A DNA stretch of 64,000 bases from an uncultured Dehalococcoidia bacterium (GTDB taxonomy: Bacteria > Chloroflexota > Dehalococcoidia > DSTF01 > WHTK01): assembly GCA_964422735.1 (NCBI GenBank), contig CAYRCD010000001.1:10501-74500 (forward strand), given 5' to 3'. The notes beneath the pieces were generated by a model. It was not told the DNA's origin. It did no database searches and saw nothing but the letters and a program-made list of their open reading frames with translations. The position numbers and the translations under genes are program-made. Positions within the stretch are counted from its first letter, which is position 1. Every line of letters starts with the position of its first letter. Positions 6,531 to 30,269 of the stretch are shown piece after piece.

Positions 6531-7658
6531 CTATTCCTCGGCCCAGACCGGCTTCTCCAGGCCGAACATCTCCGCGGCGTTGCGGTACCACAGGAGGTCC
6601 TTTTCCTCCTCTGTCAGCGCCAGCTCGTCGAACATGCGCACGAAGCGCTCCGTGTGCTCGTGGATCTCGTCCGCCGAGCAGTCTGAGCCGAAGATAAGCT
6701 TCTCGATCGGGATTTCCTTGCCGATGAGGCCGCGCTCCATCGTATGACGCTCGATCGTACGGCCGCCCGACAGGTCGAAGTACACCCAGCGCCGCCAGCG
6801 GGCGACCGAAGCCGCCTCGTCGTAGTTTCCCGTACCGCCCATGTGCGCGCCGATGATCTTCAAACGCGGGAAGCGGTTGGCGATCGTCTCCAGGTGAAAC
6901 GGCCGCATGTAGGTAGCCGACATCTCGCGTGGCCCCAGGCGCCGGAAAGCGGCGAACGGGTTCTCCGGCTGGCCCGCGGCCTTCGCATCCGCCTCGAGCT
7001 TCCGGCGCCGGTCATCCGCCCAGTTGGCGACGGAACCCCCTTCATTGTCACCCTGAGAGCCATTCTTGTTGTCATTCTGAGGCGAAGCCGAAGAATCTGT
7101 CCGTCCGCTTCCCGCCTCGCGCATCTGGCTCTCCATCTCTCGCATCCGCTTCGCCGATTCCGGGTCGCGCCGCGGATGGCGCGCCAGGAGGTCCATAGCG
7201 CCGCCGATCACGCCGCAGTGGAACAAGATCGGCATGTCCAGCTCCTCTGCCGCGCGGTAGACGGGGAAGTGGTCGCGATAGTCGTAGGGGTGGCGCGTGC
7301 CAATGATCTTCAGGCCGCGGTAGCCCATCTCGTGCAAGCGATGGATGTCGTCGAACGTCTGGTCGGCCGGGTCGACCACCGCGTGCGGCACGAACAGGTC
7401 CTCGTGCTTCATCGCCATGTCGATGCACTGCTCGTAGGTCAGGCCGAAGCGGCCGCCGCAGAGCAGGCTCGCCTTCACAGTCCCCACCTCGCGCAGCCGC
7501 TCGGCAAGGTGGTCGACCATCTCCTGCGGCGTCTTGCCCTCGCCCGCCGCGGGGTCACGCCCGGAGTCGCCCGCGGAGACCGGCGGCCGCGTGCCCGGCG
7601 GTCCGCCGGGCCCGGGGAAGTTGCGGGGGAAGTGCACGTGTACGTCCCATATCCTCAT
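6531..7658 (-). CDS. metal-dependent amidohydrolase (TIM-barrel, amidohydrolase-2-like) carrying an internal repeat-derived insertion
   Basis: N-terminus MRIWDVHVHFP; internal HCGV and IIGAHMGG; C-terminal LIFGSDC. An atypical Q/N/D/G-rich segment (SSASPQNDNKNGSQGDNEGG) is encoded by the repeat at 7041..7104. Confidence 0.85.
   Translation of the reverse strand: MRIWDVHVHFPRNFPGPGGPPGTRPPVSAGDSGRDPAAGEGKTPQEMVDHLAERLREVGTVKASLLCGGRFGLTYEQCIDMAMKHEDLFVPHAVVDPADQTFDDIHRLHEMGYRGLKIIGTRHPYDYRDHFPVYRAAEELDMPILFHCGVIGGAMDLLARHPRRDPESAKRMREMESQMREAGSGRTDSSASPQNDNKNGSQGDNEGGSVANWADDRRRKLEADAKAAGQPENPFAAFRRLGPREMSATYMRPFHLETIANRFPRLKIIGAHMGGTGNYDEAASVARWRRWVYFDLSGGRTIERHTMERGLIGKEIPIEKLIFGSDCSADEIHEHTERFVRMFDELALTEEEKDLLWYRNAAEMFGLEKPVWAEE
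7041..7104. repeat. copy of the GTCATTCTGAGGCGWAGCCGAAGAATCT element, in frame inside the amidohydrolase
   Basis: gtcattctgaggcgaagccgaagaatctgtccgt (7071..7104) is near-identical to 12747..12780 in mfd. A degenerate half-copy precedes it at 7041..7070. Confidence 0.75.
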
Positions 7659-8987: not shown

Positions 8988-9530
8988 ATGAAGATACTGA
9001 CGACACTCGACGGCTCTCTTGAATCGAGTCAGGTACTGGCGACGGTCTCCAACCTGGCGAAGGGGCTCGGGGCCACCGTGGTTCTTCTCACGGTATGTGA
9101 CCCTGCGCACGAACTGCTGCGGATGCATCCAGAACCGTCGGGACCGGCCCTCATCTCCGGGCCCGCGGCCCTCGTATCGTCGACGCAAATCGAGGTCGCG
9201 GAACTGAATCAGCCAACGCCCGCACCCTGGGCGGAGTCCAGGGATCAGAGCATAAGCAGAGTGGAGGCAGAGGCCCGAGACTACCTTGGTGAGGCGGGAC
9301 GCCCTCTAAGGGAAGCCGGCGTTGCCGTCGAGTCGAGGGTGCTAACGGCCGATAACGCGGCGAAGGCAATCATCGACGTCGCGCGTCAGGAAAAGGCCGA
9401 TATCGTGGCAATGGCAACGCACGGCCGTTCCGGTCTCAGAAACATTGTTCACGGCAGCGTCGCCAGCGCGGTGGTCAGGTCTGGCGTTGCCCCGGTCCTT
9501 CTGGTGCGCTCTTCCGCGACGCGCCCCTAG
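8988..9530 (+). CDS. universal stress protein (UspA family)
   Basis: MKILTTLDGS at the N-terminus and ADIVAMATHGRSGLRNIVHGSVASAVVRSGVAPVLLV at the C-terminus. ATG 8988 is in frame with the tracked ORF. Confidence 0.85.
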   Translation: MKILTTLDGSLESSQVLATVSNLAKGLGATVVLLTVCDPAHELLRMHPEPSGPALISGPAALVSSTQIEVAELNQPTPAPWAESRDQSISRVEAEARDYLGEAGRPLREAGVAVESRVLTADNAAKAIIDVARQEKADIVAMATHGRSGLRNIVHGSVASAVVRSGVAPVLLVRSSATRP

Positions 9531-9615
9531 TCTTGCCCGCGCTGCGCCGCGGCCGGCGCGGTTGCGAAAGTCGGCTTGACCGCCGGCTCTCGTTCGAGCG
9601 CCTCTGGGCTCCGGT

Positions 9616-10152
9616 TCACGGCCTGCCGGCCGTTGTCGACCAGACGCTTCGTGATCTAAGCGACGCCAGCCATTCGTTCAGCTCGCGGCGCGAGGTGAAC
9701 CTGTGGCGAACGCGGTCCGCGAAAGCGGCGTCCGCGAACAGCGCGCCGGACCGGCGGCGCAGACTCGCGTGCATTCGGACCGACCACCAGACCACCGAGT
9801 CTTTGGACAAGGCCGTGCGCCAACGCTCGACGTTGCCGTGCCAGAGAGGCTCCTTAGTTACCACGCGTACGACAGTGCGGCGCAGGACCTGCCAGCGCGG
9901 CAGGTCGAGCCAGACGATGGTGTCGCAGCGGCGCAGGACCAGCTGGTCCGACGCCGAGGGCCCGAGGTTGCCATCGAGGGTCCAGCCTTCCGCCCTCGTG
10001 GCCGCATCGAACTCCACGAGCTCCTCCTCCCGGGGCGCTGGCTGCCAGTTCGGCCGCCAGATGATCGCGTCGTTGCAGATGTAGGTCAGCCCCAGCTTCT
10101 CCGCCAGCGCCTGGGCGACGAACGTCTTGCCGCAGCCGCTGCTGCCGACCAC
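9616..10152 (-). CDS. P-loop NTPase (adenylate-kinase / topology-modulation-like small kinase)
   Basis: Walker A GSSGCGKT lies at the extreme N-terminus, and the length is about 175 aa. The first canonical start (GTG 10152) cuts into the strand before the P-loop (upstream in frame: EVRRRIC). Confidence 0.65.
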   Translation of the reverse strand: MVGSSGCGKTFVAQALAEKLGLTYICNDAIIWRPNWQPAPREEELVEFDAATRAEGWTLDGNLGPSASDQLVLRRCDTIVWLDLPRWQVLRRTVVRVVTKEPLWHGNVERWRTALSKDSVVWWSVRMHASLRRRSGALFADAAFADRVRHRFTSRRELNEWLASLRSRSVWSTTAGRP

Positions 10153-14914: not shown

Positions 14915-16093
14915 TTAGCGCGCGGCCGCGCCCGCTGTCTGGCGCAGACCGCCGACCGCTTCCGGCAGCAGCTCGCAGACCCTGTCGATCTCTTCGATCG
15001 TCGTCGCCGACGAGAGCGTGAGGCGCAGGCTGCCCACGGCCTCGGTCATCGCGAGGCCCATCGCTAAAAGCACGTGCGAAGGCTCCCAGGTGGACGAGCC
15101 GCAGGCGGCGCCCGCCGAGGCGGCGATGTCGAGCTTGTCGAGCGCGGCCACGAGGTCATCGCCGCGCACGCCCCGGAAGCTGACGTTCACGTTGTTTGCC
15201 AGGCGCCGCGAGGGATGGCCATTCAGGGAGGCGTCCGGCACGGCGCTCAAGATACGCCGGGCAAGGGTGTCGCGCATCGCCTCGCAGACCCGGACGCTGT
15301 CGACGCGTTCCGTTTCCGCGATTTCCAGAGCCACGGCCTGGCCGACGATCCCGGCGACGTTCTCGGTGCCGGCGCGGCGCTGCCGCTCCTGACCCCCGCC
15401 CGCGATCTGGGCGGTGAACGGCGTGCCCCGGCGCATGTAAAGCACGCCGGTGCCCTTGGGCCCCCCGAACTTGTGACCGGACAGGCTGAGGAGGTCGATG
15501 CCGAGGGCCTCTACGTCGAGCGACAGGTATCCGGGGGCCTGCACCGCGTCGGTGTGCACGGGCACCTTTCGCCGCAGCTCTCGTCCGCGAGCCGCCACGA
15601 CGGCGGCGACCTCCGCGATCGGCTCGATGGTGCCGACCTCGTTGTTCGCAAGCATCACCGAGACCAGCACCGTCCGCTCCGTGACCGCGCCTGCGACCTG
15701 TTCGGGGTCGACGAGTCCATACCGGTCCACGGGCACATAGGTGACGTCGAACCCGAAGTCTTCGAGGTAGTTGCAGGTGTGATGGACGGCGTGGTGCTCG
15801 ACGGTCGTCGTTACGACGTGGTTGCCGGCCCGCGCCTTCTTCTGGGCGAAAGCGACGCCCTTGAGGGCCGTGTTGATGGACTCCGTGCCGCCGGACGTGA
15901 AGACGATGTCCGAGGAGCGGCAGTTGAGCACGGCCGCGACCGTCTTGCGAGCGTCGTCGATCGCCCTCTGGGCCTGGCGGGCGAGCGTGTGTGTCGCCGA
16001 CGGGTTGCCGTAGCTCTGCGTGAGGTACGGCATCATCGCCTCGAGGGCTCGAGGATGAAGCGGCGTCGTCGCCGCGTTATCGAGATAGATCAT
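14915..16093 (-). CDS. cysteine desulfurase (NifS/IscS-like class V aminotransferase)
   Basis: MIYLDNAATTP, FTSGGTESIN, LLSLSGHKFGGPKGTG (PLP Lys) and AGAACGS (active-site Cys loop). The start ATG at 16093 is taken in place of the longer tracked ORF. Confidence 0.9.
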   Translation of the reverse strand: MIYLDNAATTPLHPRALEAMMPYLTQSYGNPSATHTLARQAQRAIDDARKTVAAVLNCRSSDIVFTSGGTESINTALKGVAFAQKKARAGNHVVTTTVEHHAVHHTCNYLEDFGFDVTYVPVDRYGLVDPEQVAGAVTERTVLVSVMLANNEVGTIEPIAEVAAVVAARGRELRRKVPVHTDAVQAPGYLSLDVEALGIDLLSLSGHKFGGPKGTGVLYMRRGTPFTAQIAGGGQERQRRAGTENVAGIVGQAVALEIAETERVDSVRVCEAMRDTLARRILSAVPDASLNGHPSRRLANNVNVSFRGVRGDDLVAALDKLDIAASAGAACGSSTWEPSHVLLAMGLAMTEAVGSLRLTLSSATTIEEIDRVCELLPEAVGGLRQTAGAAAR

Positions 16094-16234
16094 CGGGATT
16101 CCTGGAGTCTCGCGCTTACGTTCACGTAAGACCACGGTACCCCCACTGGGTATCGCTGTCAAACTCGACGAAGAACCGGGAACGAGGAACCAGGAATTCG
16201 CCTTGCCACTTTCGTGGGGCGGCCAAAACGAAAA

Positions 16235-16264
16235 CACGTAGCCGAGACTTTCCAGTCTCGGCGG
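16235..16264 (+). repeat. CGTAGCC-hairpin repeat (cacgtaGCCGAGACTttccAGTCTCGGCgg)
   Basis: Perfect 9-bp stem. Related copies lie at 18299..18325, 45595..45623, 49522..49551 and 60472..60500 (reverse orientation). Confidence 0.8.
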
Positions 16265-16368
16265 CCATGAAGTCGCAATGGCTTCAACCGCTGCCGAATT
16301 GACAGATGCGAGCCGCGCGATTACGGTTGGGCATCGCAGAGCACCACAGCTGATCTCCGGGGGTTTCT

Positions 16369-19666: not shown

Positions 19667-19869
19667 TCCTCGGCTTCTCTGGAAGTCCCGGGTCTGACGT
19701 CCCGCACCAGGCCGCTGATCTCGACGCCGGCTTTGACCATTTCGAACCAGTAAGCGTGGCCAAGGTCGTTGGGGTGAAAGCGGTCGGCGCTAAAGTTGAA
19801 GGCATGATAACGCGCGTCGCCCAACTTCTCGACCGGAAGCCCCAAGCGCCAGCGGCGCACGGTTCGCAC
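19654..19869 (-). pseudogene. C-terminal remnant of an SGNH/GDSL hydrolase
   Basis: The 71-aa ORF contains FSADRFHPNDLGHAYW (SGNH block V, DxxHP). Blocks I-III are absent, and stops lie upstream in the low-GC segment. Confidence 0.55.
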
Positions 19870-19992
19870 TGGGGATGTAAACTAGGGAACCCGCAGTAGA
19901 ATTTAGACTGTCCTTGAGCTCCGGCTTTGCGTGTCGCGCTCGCGGATAGAGGCATCTGCCTCAAGTCGGTCATCCTGAATCAAAGGAGCACC

Positions 19993-20214
19993 ATGAAAAG
20001 GTTCATTCTTGCTAGCCTCATGGCGATTATTCTGACAATGTCGCTCCTCCACGCCCGTACCGCCTCCGCCACTATTTGCTGGACGAACGATGGTCCTATC
20101 ACGTCAATAATGGTCGTGCAACGAGCCGATGCCGTGGTCGCTACCATACGAACTCCGCCCGCTGGCCCGATGAGCGCGACTCCAGGCGGTCCGACCCAAG
20201 GATGCTTCCCCTAA
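19993..20214 (+). CDS. small secreted protein (73 aa; signal peptide, two Cys), family not recognised
   Basis: aaggagcaccATG; MKRFILASLMAIILTMSLLHARTASA then TICW...GCFP. Third-position GC is clearly lower than in the neighbours. Confidence 0.5.
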   Translation: MKRFILASLMAIILTMSLLHARTASATICWTNDGPITSIMVVQRADAVVATIRTPPAGPMSATPGGPTQGCFP

Positions 20215-20446
20215 CAACGGCCATAGCGATCAAGTGAAGCAAGAAGGCCCGCTTCATTTAGTGCCGCTCGAGGACTCCCCCGCGGAGGACGATACGCCGG
20301 CGAACGCCAAGACGGCCGGCATCGTGATGAAGAGGACGCCGATCACGATCATTTGATCGTGTCGGTTGGTCCTGGCCTCACGATGAAGTCATCGTGTCGT
20401 TCAGGGGCATGGCTGCCTTGGCGGAAGCTTCTCTTAAGGAGGGGTC

Positions 20447-21256
20447 ATGCCGAGTAAATTGTCTGGCATGAAGGCGGCGACCAATACCACGGCTGCACTA
20501 TTCTCCGACGCCTCTGCCATCAGGCGCGTTCATCGGGAGAGCATGGTCCTGCTTGGCGGCGGCCGCGCCCTGCTGATGCAGGTCGCCCACCCGGCCGTCG
20601 CCGCGGGCGTTGCCGAGCACAGCGCCTTCCGGGGTCGGCGGCTCGAGCGTCTCCTCCGGACGCTGCGTCCCACGCTCGCCATCGTCTTCGGATCGCCCGC
20701 CCAGGTGCGAGCGGCGGCCGCTTCCATCAACGCGGTGCACGAGCAAGTCGTGGGTGACGGCTACCGCGCGACCGACCCTGACCTCCTCCTCTGGGTCCTC
20801 GCGACCTTGATTGACACCGCCCTCCTCATGCACCAGCGCTTTCTCAGGCCGTTGAGTGAGGAGGAGGCCGACGCCTATTACCGCGACATGCTCCGGGCCG
20901 GCGCGCTTCTCGGCGTCAGTCGGGACGAGGCGCCGGAGGACATCGCCGCCTTCCGCCGCTATGTGGAGGACACGTTGCGGTCGCTAAAGGTGAGCGGCGC
21001 CGGACGCCGGATCGCCGCCGAGTTGTTCGCGGCCGGACCTCCGGCCGCGCCTGTCTTTGCCGCCCTGAGAGAGCTTACGGCCGGCCTTCTTCCGGCCGTT
21101 CTAAGGGAACAATTCGGTCTAGGCTGGGGTCCCGGAAGGGAGCGGGCATTAGAAGTCCTGGCCGCAACCTCTCGCCTGGTGGTTCCCCGGCTGCCTTCCG
21201 CCCTTCGCGCTCCGCCCCGGCTCGTGATGCCGGCGAGGCAGGGCCGGCCGGGCTGA
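20447..21256 (+). CDS. MpaB/DUF2236 family oxygenase-like protein
   Basis: RRVHRESMVLLGGGRALLMQVAHPAVAAGV...INAVHEQV...DPDLLLWVLATL. The start context is aaggaggggtcATG. Confidence 0.8.
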   Translation: MPSKLSGMKAATNTTAALFSDASAIRRVHRESMVLLGGGRALLMQVAHPAVAAGVAEHSAFRGRRLERLLRTLRPTLAIVFGSPAQVRAAAASINAVHEQVVGDGYRATDPDLLLWVLATLIDTALLMHQRFLRPLSEEEADAYYRDMLRAGALLGVSRDEAPEDIAAFRRYVEDTLRSLKVSGAGRRIAAELFAAGPPAAPVFAALRELTAGLLPAVLREQFGLGWGPGRERALEVLAATSRLVVPRLPSALRAPPRLVMPARQGRPG

Positions 21257-25896: not shown

Positions 25897-26532
25897 TCAG
25901 CCGGTCTGACGGCGGTGCCTGCCTCCGACCTGGCCCATCATGTGCTCCAGTGCCGGATACTCCTGGGCGCCGACCATGCCCAGTCTCTCGTCGAAGACGA
26001 AGGTCGGGATTGCTGTCACGCCAATCGAACGCGACCAGGCAACGCCTTCGTCGACGAGCTTGCGATAGTCCTCACCGGCGAGGACACGGCGCAAGTCGCT
26101 CCCATCCAGGCCGGCCTTCTCACCCACCCGCACCACAGCGTCGATGCTGCCGATGTCCGAGAGGTCCTCGAAGTAGGCCTTGAACACTTCCCGGTGGAAC
26201 TCCCAGGCATGGTCTTTCTCGCGCGCGTATTCCGCCGCTTCCAGGGCCAGATGCGAGTTCGAGGTGAGCGTACGGCCGCGGCTGAATCTGATACCCAGGC
26301 GTTCGCCGCGCTGTTCGAGTGGGCTGGGCGGGGCCTCGGGCTTGCTCATCGGCCGTCGTGGCTTGCCTCCCGCCGGTGCCGTGGGATCGAGCAGGAAAGG
26401 CGCGAAGAGGACCTCGACGTCGTACTCCTTCTGCAGCCGCTCGACCTCCACGAGGCCGACGTAGCACCAGGGTCAGACGAAGTCTGAGACGACGATTACC
26501 GAGATGGGCTCCGGGCCGCTGTCCTCAACCAC
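25897..26532 (-). CDS. DsbA/FrnE-like thiol:disulfide oxidoreductase with in-frame TGA at the first Cys of the CPWC motif (candidate selenoprotein or nonsense pseudogene)
   Basis: GTG 26532 ... ISVIVVSDFV-TGA(26475..26473)-PWCYVGLVEVERLQKEY... continues in frame into tracked ORF 25897..26451. The family consensus is fsDfvCPWCyig. Confidence 0.7.
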
Positions 26533-26603: not shown

Positions 26604-27212
26604 CTAGCTCGGGAAGACCGCCAGGCGCTCATAGCGGGCGCCGCCCGGACCCAGATTGCTGCGCATCAGGCTCACGCGCTCGACGGTGAAGGACGGCATC
26701 GCCGATATCGCCGCCGCGGCAAGAGCGACCTCGAAAGCCTGCCGCCCCTCGCCGGGGAGCGCATATGGTATACGCGCCAGCGTGAGGTGAGGCGTCAGCC
26801 CGCGTTTCTCGAGGCGGAAGCCAGAGGCATGGAGCCACGTGTCGATCCTCTGTGCGAGCCTTATCAGCCCAACCGTGTCCCCCGTGAGGCCGGCCCAGAC
26901 CACTCGGGGCGCGCGACGGTCGCTGAACACTCCGATGCGGTGAAGGCTGATGATGAGGTTTGGCGGCTCGGGGACCGCCTGGTTAAGCGCGGACTCCACC
27001 GACGCTCGCCTGGATTCGGGCACTTCGCCGACGAACTTGAGCGTGAGGTGAATCGCCTCAGGCCGTACCCAACGCAGGCGAAGTGCCGGATCGAGCGCAC
27101 CCCGCAGCGTATCCTGCAGGGTGCCGAGGGCCGCAATCCAGGACTCAGGCAGCTCGGCGGCGACGAACAGCCGTAGTTGCGGGTCTCGCGATTGCCGGCG
27201 TTCTTGATTCAC
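26604..27212 (-). CDS. thpR: RNA 2',3'-cyclic phosphodiesterase (2H family, ThpR/LigT)
   Basis: Two HxT motifs (IHLTLKFVG and PHLTLARI). Length is about 200 aa. Confidence 0.85.
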   Translation of the reverse strand: MNQERRQSRDPQLRLFVAAELPESWIAALGTLQDTLRGALDPALRLRWVRPEAIHLTLKFVGEVPESRRASVESALNQAVPEPPNLIISLHRIGVFSDRRAPRVVWAGLTGDTVGLIRLAQRIDTWLHASGFRLEKRGLTPHLTLARIPYALPGEGRQAFEVALAAAAISAMPSFTVERVSLMRSNLGPGGARYERLAVFPS

Positions 27213-28025
27213 TTGATCCTCGGAAGCCGCGCGGCGTTGCCGCCCAGCACGGAGCGGGCAGCCGCGCCGTCTCCCAGTGCGGCCTCAACCTCGCGTCTGG
27301 CCGTCTCCTGGGGAACAAGCGGAAAAGCGCTCCCGAACAGGATCTGGTCCTCGCCGACGAGGGCTAACGCCGTCCGAAAGACGTCCGCGAAATGTGGGAG
27401 TTGCGTCGCCGCTGTATCGAACCAGCAGGACTCAAACGCGCGCTTCACTTCCGGCATCAGGGCGTAGAACGGCAGACCCCGTCCCCGTGAGCGCTGATCA
27501 CGCGCAGTCCCGGGTGGCCTTCGACAAACGCCGCGAAGTCGGTGAGAGGGAGTCCCGCCTTACCGGCATAGGCGTGCCCCACCGGCTCTGAGACATGAAA
27601 CAGGTCATTGTCGCCGGCGGCCCCTGCCAGCGCCTCCCCCTCCGACATGCCGATGTCGTAGCCCTGGTCGATCGGCCGCGGCTCGCCGAGGCCGGATGCG
27701 CCGAGCCGTGCGCAGCGTTCGATCTCAGCCGTCAGCATGTCTTTGCCGGCGCGTGGTTGGACGCAGCGCTCCAGGCGAAGCCGAGGACGCCGGAGACATC
27801 GATCCCGGCACCGCTCATGCTTTCGAGCAAGTCTTCCGCCGTGGCGAGCTTCGTCCGCGGGTCGCGATATATGGCGCCAAAGGCCGCGTCGCGGCGGCAG
27901 GATTCCTTCTTGGCGCCGATCATGCTCGGCGGGAACACGTGTGTGTGGAAGTCCACTATCACGACGGGATCATACCAGCGGCCGCCCCGCTCACGCCCTG
28001 GATTGTTGAGCGGATCGCTCAACAA
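27209..28025 (-). pseudogene. amidohydrolase-2 family gene split over three reading frames
   Basis: ORFs 27732..28025 (VDFHTHVFPP), 27457..27738 (ISAHGDG) and 27209..27457 (ILFGSAFPL) are consecutive parts of one TIM-barrel amidohydrolase. The frames switch near 27735 and in the G-runs at about 27465. Confidence 0.7.
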
Positions 28026-28033
28026 ATGGCAAG

Positions 28034-28885
28034 ATGCAGCCGGAGTCGCTCGCCTTGTCCGACATCGTAATCCTCGCCGGCCTCGTGCTCCTTGGCGTCG
28101 TGGTCGGCGCCTACGGCACGCTGATCGGCGCCGGCGGCGGCTTCGTGCTCACGCCCGCCTTGCTGCTTCTCCATCCGCAGCGGCCCGCCGACGTGATTAC
28201 CGCGGTTTCGCTGGGCGTCGTGTTTTTCAACGCCGCCTCCGGCGCGCTGGCCTACGCACGCCAGGGCCGGATCGATTACCTGGCGGCGGCGATTTTCGCG
28301 GCGGCGACGCTCCCGGGGGCAATCGCCGGCGCGCTCGTGACCGGTCGCCTCCCCCGCCCTACCTTTGAGGCGGCGTTTGCCGTCCTCCTCCTTCTGGTCG
28401 CGGTGTGGCTGGTGTTGCCGCGGCCGGCGCACGTCCTCACGACGCCGCCGCCGCGCCGCTATCTCCGCCGTGTCCGCACCGATGCCGGGGGAGACACCTA
28501 CGCGTACTCCTTTGACCCCTTTCTCGGGGCCGGCTTCGGCCTGGGCATCGGGTTTGTGTCCAGCCTGTTCGGAGTCGGCGGCGGCATCATCTACGTGCCG
28601 GCGATGGTCCTTCTCATGAGGTTCCCGGGCTATATCGCGACCGCCACCTCGACCTTCACTCTGATGTTCACGGCCGGCGCGGGCGCCGCCGTCCACCTCG
28701 TCCAGGGTGACTACGGCGGCGTTATCGCCGAGGAGGTCTCGCTTGCCGCCGGCGTGCTCGTCGGCGCCCAACTCGGCGCGCGGTCCTCCGTCTGGCTCGC
28801 GCCTCGCCAGGGCGTCGTACTCCGGCTTCTAAGTCTGGCGCTGGCCCTCGTCGGGGTCCGGCTTCTGTACGGCGCCCTACTCTAA
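28034..28885 (+). CDS. TauE/SafE family anion (sulfite-type) exporter
   Basis: Duplicated 4-TM halves with GTLIGAGGGFVLTP and LFGVGGGIIYVP. Confidence 0.85.
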   Translation: MQPESLALSDIVILAGLVLLGVVVGAYGTLIGAGGGFVLTPALLLLHPQRPADVITAVSLGVVFFNAASGALAYARQGRIDYLAAAIFAAATLPGAIAGALVTGRLPRPTFEAAFAVLLLLVAVWLVLPRPAHVLTTPPPRRYLRRVRTDAGGDTYAYSFDPFLGAGFGLGIGFVSSLFGVGGGIIYVPAMVLLMRFPGYIATATSTFTLMFTAGAGAAVHLVQGDYGGVIAEEVSLAAGVLVGAQLGARSSVWLAPRQGVVLRLLSLALALVGVRLLYGALL

Positions 28886-29356
28886 GGTCTTGGCGACGTT
28901 GACGATTTGGCGCCGGCTAAGGGGCGGGCCGAGGGCGAGGACCTCGTAGTAGAAGCCGCCCCGCGCCCATACGATGCGGTATTCCGCGCGCCTGGAGCCG
29001 TCATTGCGCTCGATCAGGTCGGCGTTCACTCCCGCGAGGAGCTCGATCACGATGTGAGAGGCGCCCGCCGGGTCCGCGCTCTGAATCGGCGCGACCTGCG
29101 ACTGGCGAACGCTAATCTCGAAGGGGCCGTCGAAGAACATCGTCGCGCTCTGGCGGCCGGCCGCGCCGGTGACGTCGACCGAGGTCAGGCCTTGACCCTC
29201 TGGCAGATCGCAGGGGTAGAGCAGGGTGAAGGCGGCCTTTGCCCGCGCGGCGTCGAGGGTAGCCGCCTCCCTCGACCCTTCCGCCGGGAAGTCACAACCC
29301 CCGGTCGGCTCTGTGACGGTGCAGACGGCGGCCGAATAGACGGCCACGGCCACCAC
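28877..29356 (-). CDS. hypothetical exported protein (family not recognised)
   Basis: Hydrophobic N-terminus, then Cys-containing soluble part. The upstream in-frame sequence RRIIKYGLLAA lacks a canonical start. Confidence 0.5.
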   Translation of the reverse strand: MVAVAVYSAAVCTVTEPTGGCDFPAEGSREAATLDAARAKAAFTLLYPCDLPEGQGLTSVDVTGAAGRQSATMFFDGPFEISVRQSQVAPIQSADPAGASHIVIELLAGVNADLIERNDGSRRAEYRIVWARGGFYYEVLALGPPLSRRQIVNVAKTLE

Positions 29357-29393
29357 GGCGGCGAGGAGCCCGTACTTGATGATCCGTCGAACG

Positions 29394-30269
29394 CTAAACG
29401 CCCGCGTAGCTGTGCAGACCCGAGAACACGAAATTGACGGCGAAGTAGGTGAACATCACCGCTCCGAACGCCGCGACCAGGAGCCAGGCCGAGCGACGGC
29501 CCTCCCAGCCGCGCAGGGCTCGGGCGTGCAGGTAGCCCGCGTAGACGAACCACGTCAGCAGGGCCGAGGTCTCCTTCGGGTCCCAACCCCAGTAGCGGCC
29601 CCAGGCGGAGTTCGCCCAGTACGCCCCCAGGGCGATGCCGAGCGTCAGGAGCGGGAAGCCCACCAGAACAGACCAGTATCCGATCTCCTCCAGCGTCTCG
29701 CGCGTGGGCAGGCGCAGGACGCCGCCGGTCGTCGAGCCCGTCTGGACTTGCTCATCGCCTCTACGAAGGTTGAGAAGGTAGAGAACCGAGGCGCCGAAAG
29801 AGACCGACAGGCTACTGTATGCCAGCACCATGGTTGTCACATGAATTGCGAGGATGCGGTTGGCCTGGAGGGCAGGCACGAGGGGATGGACCGACGACGG
29901 GAAGAACAGCAGCGCGATGGTCATGAGGACGGTCGCCACGGTCATCATCACAGCGCTGACCGCTCGCTCCTGGAAGCGCAATTCGAACAGGTTTGAGAAG
30001 AGGGTTATACCCCAGCCCAGGGCGACCGTGTATTCCCAGAGGTTCCCGATTGGAGGCCGGTCGACGGCGAACGTACGGAAGATGATCGATGCGGTAAGGA
30101 GAAGAAGGGCCAGACGGCTCGTGGCAACGCCAAGAGCGCCCAGAGCCGGCGGCGCTTCGACCCTGACCGGCATCGTAACGCTGACCGAGCCGGTCGCCGC
30201 CTGACGGTAGACCGTCCAGGTCGCGACCGCGGCGACCAGGTGGCTGAGCGCCCCTGTAGCGGCGAGCAC
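29394..30269 (-). CDS. ccsA: cytochrome c biogenesis protein CcsA/ResC (system II heme handling)
   Basis: W-rich motif WGRYWGWDPKETSALLTW with polytopic TM topology. Confidence 0.85.
   Translation of the reverse strand: MLAATGALSHLVAAVATWTVYRQAATGSVSVTMPVRVEAPPALGALGVATSRLALLLLTASIIFRTFAVDRPPIGNLWEYTVALGWGITLFSNLFELRFQERAVSAVMMTVATVLMTIALLFFPSSVHPLVPALQANRILAIHVTTMVLAYSSLSVSFGASVLYLLNLRRGDEQVQTGSTTGGVLRLPTRETLEEIGYWSVLVGFPLLTLGIALGAYWANSAWGRYWGWDPKETSALLTWFVYAGYLHARALRGWEGRRSAWLLVAAFGAVMFTYFAVNFVFSGLHSYAGV

Follow-up and report, generated by a model that had tools for sequence, protein, structure and literature searches.

In 2005 a study of the Sargasso Sea recognised a selenoprotein family in DsbA-like proteins of COG2761 that carry a UxxC motif (PMC1088965), and in 2006 such proteins were identified in sequenced genomes (PMC1794560). 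By 2016 DsbA-like selenoproteins were counted in 41 organisms, and a review from 2026 carries the entry 'DsbA-like protein form 1, PF01323, UxxC' (PMC13188914). The members described come from the Sargasso Sea metagenome, from Deltaproteobacteria and Clostridia, and from Asgard archaea (PMC1088965, PMC1794560, PMC13188914). Bacterial SECIS elements are characterised by a small apical loop that contains a G (PMC1088965), and exchange between selenocysteine (Sec) and Cys has already been described for bacterial selenoproteins (PMC1794560). Some MAGs of Dehalococcoidia are reported to carry 46-49 selenoprotein genes, and these are among the largest selenoproteomes in bacteria (PMC13326102).

Here we describe a gene on the minus strand of the window, the whole 64 kb stretch of DNA that was analysed, in which an in-frame TGA (26475..26473) is very probably a Sec codon. 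We read positions 26532..25897 (-) as encoding a predicted 211-residue, cytoplasmic FrnE/DsbA-like thiol:disulfide oxidoreductase (COG2761, PF01323) with the motif U-P-W-C, from a Dehalococcoidia-like (Chloroflexota) host. With the described UxxC family the gene shares the Pfam domain, the putative Sec in place of the first Cys of CxxC, widespread Cys homologues, and a small hairpin with a G in its apical loop directly 3' of the UGA. It differs from the described members in belonging to a clade of Chloroflexota/Dehalococcoidia where most species have the Sec form (67 of 80), and in its hairpin, which closes a 3-nt loop with an 8-bp stem that is very uniform. Because every family-defining feature that could be tested was found in the window gene, we assign it, as far as sequence can tell, to the known DsbA-like UxxC selenoprotein family and not to a new one.

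Reading frame and predicted fold

The features of the locus are as follows, all on the minus strand.

25897..26532, minus strand: predicted FrnE/DsbA-like selenoprotein CDS of 211 codons with a GTG start and the putative Sec at codon 20, followed by the TGA terminator (25899..25897)
26530..26532, minus strand: probable GTG start, placed by the N-termini of homologues
26473..26475, minus strand: UGA, putative Sec codon (U20), in the place of the N-terminal nucleophilic Cys of CxxC, as indicated by the TGA/Cys column across relatives
26464..26466, minus strand: TGC codon of the putative resolving Cys (C23) of the U-P-W-C motif, Cys in 81 of 81 sequences and aligned with the second Cys of the FrnE CPWC
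26441..26459, minus strand: SECIS-like hairpin, with the 5' arm UCGGCCUC (26459..26452), the loop GUG (26451..26449) and the 3' arm GAGGUCGA (26448..26441)
26449..26451, minus strand: GTG codon of the loop (Val28), apparently the false start of a 184-aa ORF call (25897..26451)
26005..26007, minus strand: codon of Pro176 (in GVTAIPTF), an invariant column in alignment A1 that aligns with gitgvPfF of FrnE

From GTG 26532 the frame reads VVEDSGPEPISVIVVSDFV-TGA(26475..26473)-PWCYVGLVEVERL and onwards, with this one internal stop in 211 codons. A preliminary description of the DNA had given the same open frame through the TGA, together with the 184-aa ORF from GTG 26451. The sequence and its translation bear out the coordinates of the frame, and the ORF is present in the mechanical ORF list; the peptide given there for the region upstream of the TGA was right in frame and coordinates but left out one Val, and 19 residues precede the TGA. 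The GTG at 26530..26532 is the sole start-type codon between the stop of the upstream gene (26606..26604) and strand β1. Its position agrees with the N-termini of full-length Cys homologues and with Met starts in three related loci (L006, L014 and L037), and the starts of orthologues fall 16-19 codons 5' of the Sec codon.

When Cys was put at the TGA, a Pfam search matched residues 12-197 to positions 2-188 of the 191 in the DSBA profile (PF01323), with an E-value of 6e-28 and 98.3 bits (cut-off 25.6). As this match spans the TGA, the domain is incomplete without the 19 codons upstream. By sequence, FrnE from Deinococcus radiodurans is the best match in the PDB (E = 2.5e-17, residues 6-203), and its SDIACPWCYIG corresponds to SDFV-U-PWCYVG. 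An AlphaFold model calculated from alignment A1 (pLDDT 90.6, pTM 0.88) has β1 at residues 10-16, 5' of the TGA, the Sec position at 20, and helix α1 from residue 22. FrnE entries are also its best fold matches in the PDB (TM 0.82, r.m.s.d. 3.2 Å), followed by SCO1869 and then by kappa-class GSTs, YjbH and HCCA isomerases.

The window protein resembles D. radiodurans FrnE (PDB codes 5CNW, 5CO3, 5CP1, 5XWH) in the motif SD-x-x-[C/U]-PWC-Y-x-G, in the GAQ and cis-Pro regions, which align, and in having no visible signal peptide. Pro176 presumably forms the cis-Pro loop that characterises active sites of the thioredoxin fold, a conformation that we assume from the fold family. The two proteins differ in that their identity is about 25%, and FrnE has a Cys where the window protein has the putative Sec. 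FrnE is 260 residues long and has a C-terminal tail with Cys239 (5CP1 is the C239S mutant), whereas the window protein is 211 residues long, has no Cys-bearing tail and contains C23 as its only Cys. Periplasmic DsbA of the E. coli type and the Gram-positive DsbA/BdbD share the thioredoxin fold, the inserted helical domain and a CxxC at the N-terminus of α1 (TM 0.56-0.62), but are only 12-16% identical to the window protein. Both groups are exported and reoxidised by DsbB. In the window protein, inspection revealed neither a signal peptide nor a lipobox, and the acidic N-terminus (VVEDSGPEPIS) runs straight into β1 at residue 10. Since no signal peptide is visible, the selenoprotein is probably cytoplasmic, like FrnE, and by analogy it may act as a disulfide reductase or isomerase. 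NCBIfam holds no model for the window protein; its NF041057, a Rcas_1661 thioredoxin-like (seleno)lipoprotein, gave a sub-threshold, partial C-terminal match only (46.8 bits against a cut-off of 190).

Codon exchange and a conserved hairpin at the UGA

The codon before PWC was read in the 80 best relatives among contigs representing one genome per species, which have identities of 47-68% and are nearly all titled as Chloroflexota MAGs, mostly of Dehalococcoidia. At the U20 column this codon is TGA in 67 of the 80 and TGC or TGT in the other 13. No stop occurs in the 18 codons 5' of the Sec/Cys codon in any of these loci, and the upstream peptide S-x-[IL]-[IL]-[VI]-[VI]-S-D-F-[VI] is conserved despite synonymous change. 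The Ser at -4, for example, is present in 68/68 Sec sequences, with the codons TCC (37), TCG (15), TCA (11) and AGC (4). Because codons upstream of the TGA vary synonymously, the conservation is one of protein. Judged from these alignments, the TGA/Cys pattern is a classic Sec/Cys signature, which recurrent independent nonsense mutations could not give. The preliminary description had suggested looking among orthologues for Cys/Sec pairs and for conservation 5' of the TGA, and had favoured a UPWC selenoprotein; the column, the protein-level selection upstream and a hairpin specific to Sec forms all speak for that option. The TGA, the frame and the hairpin are likewise kept in the Logan assembly SRR12685296 (locus L083), which has 13 mismatches to the window in 800 aligned nt. 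In a neighbour-joining (NJ) tree, Cys forms appear at at least seven separate places among the Sec forms, consistent with repeated Sec/Cys exchange.

When the 68 Sec sequences are aligned from the UGA, an 8-bp hairpin, UCGGCCUC-GUN-GAGGUCGA, which begins 14 nt 3' of the UGA, is present in all of them and nearly invariant. The entropy at the third positions of the stem codons (+5, +6, +7, +9 and +10) is 0.00-0.45 bits in Sec loci against 0.6-1.5 bits in the 13 Cys loci, while that of the loop codon (+8) is free in the Sec loci, at 1.47 bits. The helix is paired in 98.8% of cells over 62 distinct sequences, compared with 21-58% for slid controls, and RNAalifold finds the same 8 bp. As the stem hardly varies, covariation is limited to one double change, a compensatory C-G to U-A replacement in L003; eight single changes are wobble-compatible. 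The loop of the Sec sequences keeps a G and a U, either as GUN or, in three loci, as GGU. The calculated ΔG is -10.7 kcal/mol for the window, with means of -10.3 for Sec and -4.5 for Cys forms, and the hairpin is missing from 12 of the 13 Cys forms. The exception is the Cys form L012, which groups within the Sec forms; it has the full 8-bp stem (ΔG -10.7) with its loop changed from GUN to AGU, and this hairpin looks like a fossil SECIS from a recent Sec-to-Cys conversion. In the coordinates of that locus, the stretch noted is 10001-10100, and the Cys codon was read at 6563.

The conserved hairpin (26459..26441) is neither of the two that the preliminary description had put forward. The shorter of those, rejected here as a SECIS, is 87% paired and has two pairs broken in about one third of the sequences; the longer, rejected as well, has its 7 pairs complete in just 4 of the 68. 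Folding a single sequence, the check proposed at the time, did not help in finding the element: the minimum free energy of 26395-26480 is -32.2 kcal/mol, no better than that of shuffles (z = -0.07), and thermodynamics alone says nothing in DNA with 66% GC. Rfam returned no match to a SECIS family, either at the gathering threshold or at E ≤ 10. The E. coli fdhF-type SECIS is a hairpin within the CDS with a small loop containing G and U, and the window hairpin is like it in following the UGA closely inside the coding sequence and in the G and U of its small apical loop. The window hairpin, a predicted SECIS, is unlike the fdhF type in its shorter stem, which has no bulged U, and in its loop, which has 3 nt or, with the closing pair opened, 5 nt.

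We infer that Sec insertion in the window's organism depends on SelB. In the mechanism that we propose, the UGA at 26475..26473 would be recoded as selenocysteine, with the hairpin UCGGCCUC-GUG-GAGGUCGA bringing SelB.GTP.Sec-tRNA(Sec) to a ribosome whose A site is occupied by the UGA. The nucleophile would then be Sec20, which caps helix α1 at its N-terminal end, and the U20/C23 pair may cycle via a selenenylsulfide while reducing or isomerising disulfides.

Genomic context and rival explanations

A tRNA-Sec was not found in the 64 kb window or the 80 related loci, which total 1.3 Mb (ARAGORN in both, Rfam in the window). Pfam detected no SelA, SelB or SelD domain among the 30 large ORFs of the window, and tblastn with the three E. 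coli proteins (NC_000913) gave no match in the window or the 80 loci. A scan of the window for other in-frame TGAs by GC3 and motif, a noisy procedure, produced no other convincing selenoprotein candidate. No conserved synteny was seen among the related loci, where only an MpaB-like oxygenase recurs (5 loci), and because gene contexts differ, the neighbourhood gives no clue to function. This MpaB/Lcp-type oxygenase (PF09995) lies directly upstream on the opposite strand in L003, L004, L013, L016 and L021 (at about 9040-9900); that of the window is at 20438-21256, 5 kb from the selenoprotein gene.

Several other regions of the window were noted in passing. At 14918-16366 (-) the window encodes a class-V aminotransferase that matches the Aminotran_5 profile over its full length (1-371 of 371) and that we take to belong to the cysteine desulfurase / selenocysteine lyase superfamily. 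The ~650 bp at 19790-20438 contain no ORF with a coding-like GC pattern, and a small ORF on the plus strand (ATG at ~19993, to 20214) has a signal-peptide-like N-terminus, MKRFILASLMAIILTMSLLHARTASA, and no Pfam match. At 28880-29455 (-), a 192-codon ORF with coding-like GC3 and no Pfam family adjoins a cytochrome c assembly gene (PF01578).

The TGA might instead have arisen by a TGC or TGT to TGA nonsense mutation that disabled a normal CPWC oxidoreductase amid local gene decay. The preliminary description had raised this caveat on account of neighbours that look decayed, and for one of them it was correct. An Amidohydro_2 gene at ~27209-28148 (-) is split over three frames (27732-28148, 27457-27969 and 27209-27559), with a Pfam match in the last fragment only (profile 186-286 of 289), and is either a frameshifted pseudogene or the product of an assembly indel error; by eye, the first fragment has a VDFHTHVFPP-like start. 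The other neighbours of the selenoprotein gene, however, have full-length Pfam coverage, and the amidohydrolase was damaged by frameshift, not by a substitution of the kind that the change from TGC to TGA would need. The lack of Sec machinery in the window is a further point for inactivation. Against it stand the TGA at the same codon in 67/80 species, an ORF that has no other damage and shows selection for its protein sequence before and after the codon, and the conservation of a hairpin specific to the Sec form, which together make a pseudogene very improbable.

We give slightly less credence still to two further accounts. If the gene callers are right, GTG 26451 is the true start, the frame upstream of it is untranslated, and the product is a 184-aa protein that has no CxxC; a GTG is available there, and 36 of the best 120 database homologues are annotated in this way. 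Yet the 19 upstream codons are conserved as protein between species and make strand β1 and the active site of the fold, and the codon matching GTG 26451 is a non-start codon (GTT, GTC or GGT) in 36 of the 68 Sec sequences. Equally improbable is a sequencing or assembly error, or a read-through of another kind in which UGA stands for Trp, Gly or Cys or belongs to an alternative code. The frameshifts nearby could reflect assembly indels, but the same TGA is found in the independent assembly SRR12685296 and in 67 other genomes. TGA also terminates 18 of the 51 likely genes in the window, that of the selenoprotein included, and as it is an ordinary terminator here, an alternative genetic code is excluded. 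Homologues have Cys at this position, and neither Trp nor Gly. Insertion of Sec at the TGA is thus the reading that we retain.

Annotation and a possible history of the clade

The consequences of the GTG in the hairpin loop can be seen in the databases. Lengths are bimodal among the 457 homologues that a protein search returned: of the best 120, 36 have 172-187 aa and the rest ~202-250 aa, with one of 351 aa. In the alignment, the short proteins begin with V/M-EVERL or a few residues further on, all of them past the motif, and the long ones carry SDFVCPWCY[IV]G. NCBI and JGI records are both represented among the truncated calls. According to the model, a protein started at Val28 would be without β1 and the active site.

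The distribution of Sec and Cys forms also allows a more far-reaching reading, which we offer tentatively and regard as possible but on the whole unlikely. The Chloroflexota FrnE-like clade might form a subfamily of its own that started out with Sec and gained its Cys forms through repeated reversion from Sec to Cys, with the near-invariant minimal SECIS (8 bp + GUN) marking a lineage-specific mode of recognition by SelB. It is the scatter of Cys forms in the NJ tree, together with the L012 stem and its mutated loop, that suggests this reading.

The window gene leaves the current understanding of selenoproteins unchanged, and its main value lies in annotation: standard gene callers begin at the GTG in the loop of the SECIS, which costs the annotated protein its active site, and because NCBIfam has no model for the family, this truncation recurs across Chloroflexota MAGs. 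The conserved hairpin provides a simple signature for mending the truncated records, and the mosaic of Sec and Cys forms is a clean dataset for studies of Sec-to-Cys exchange.
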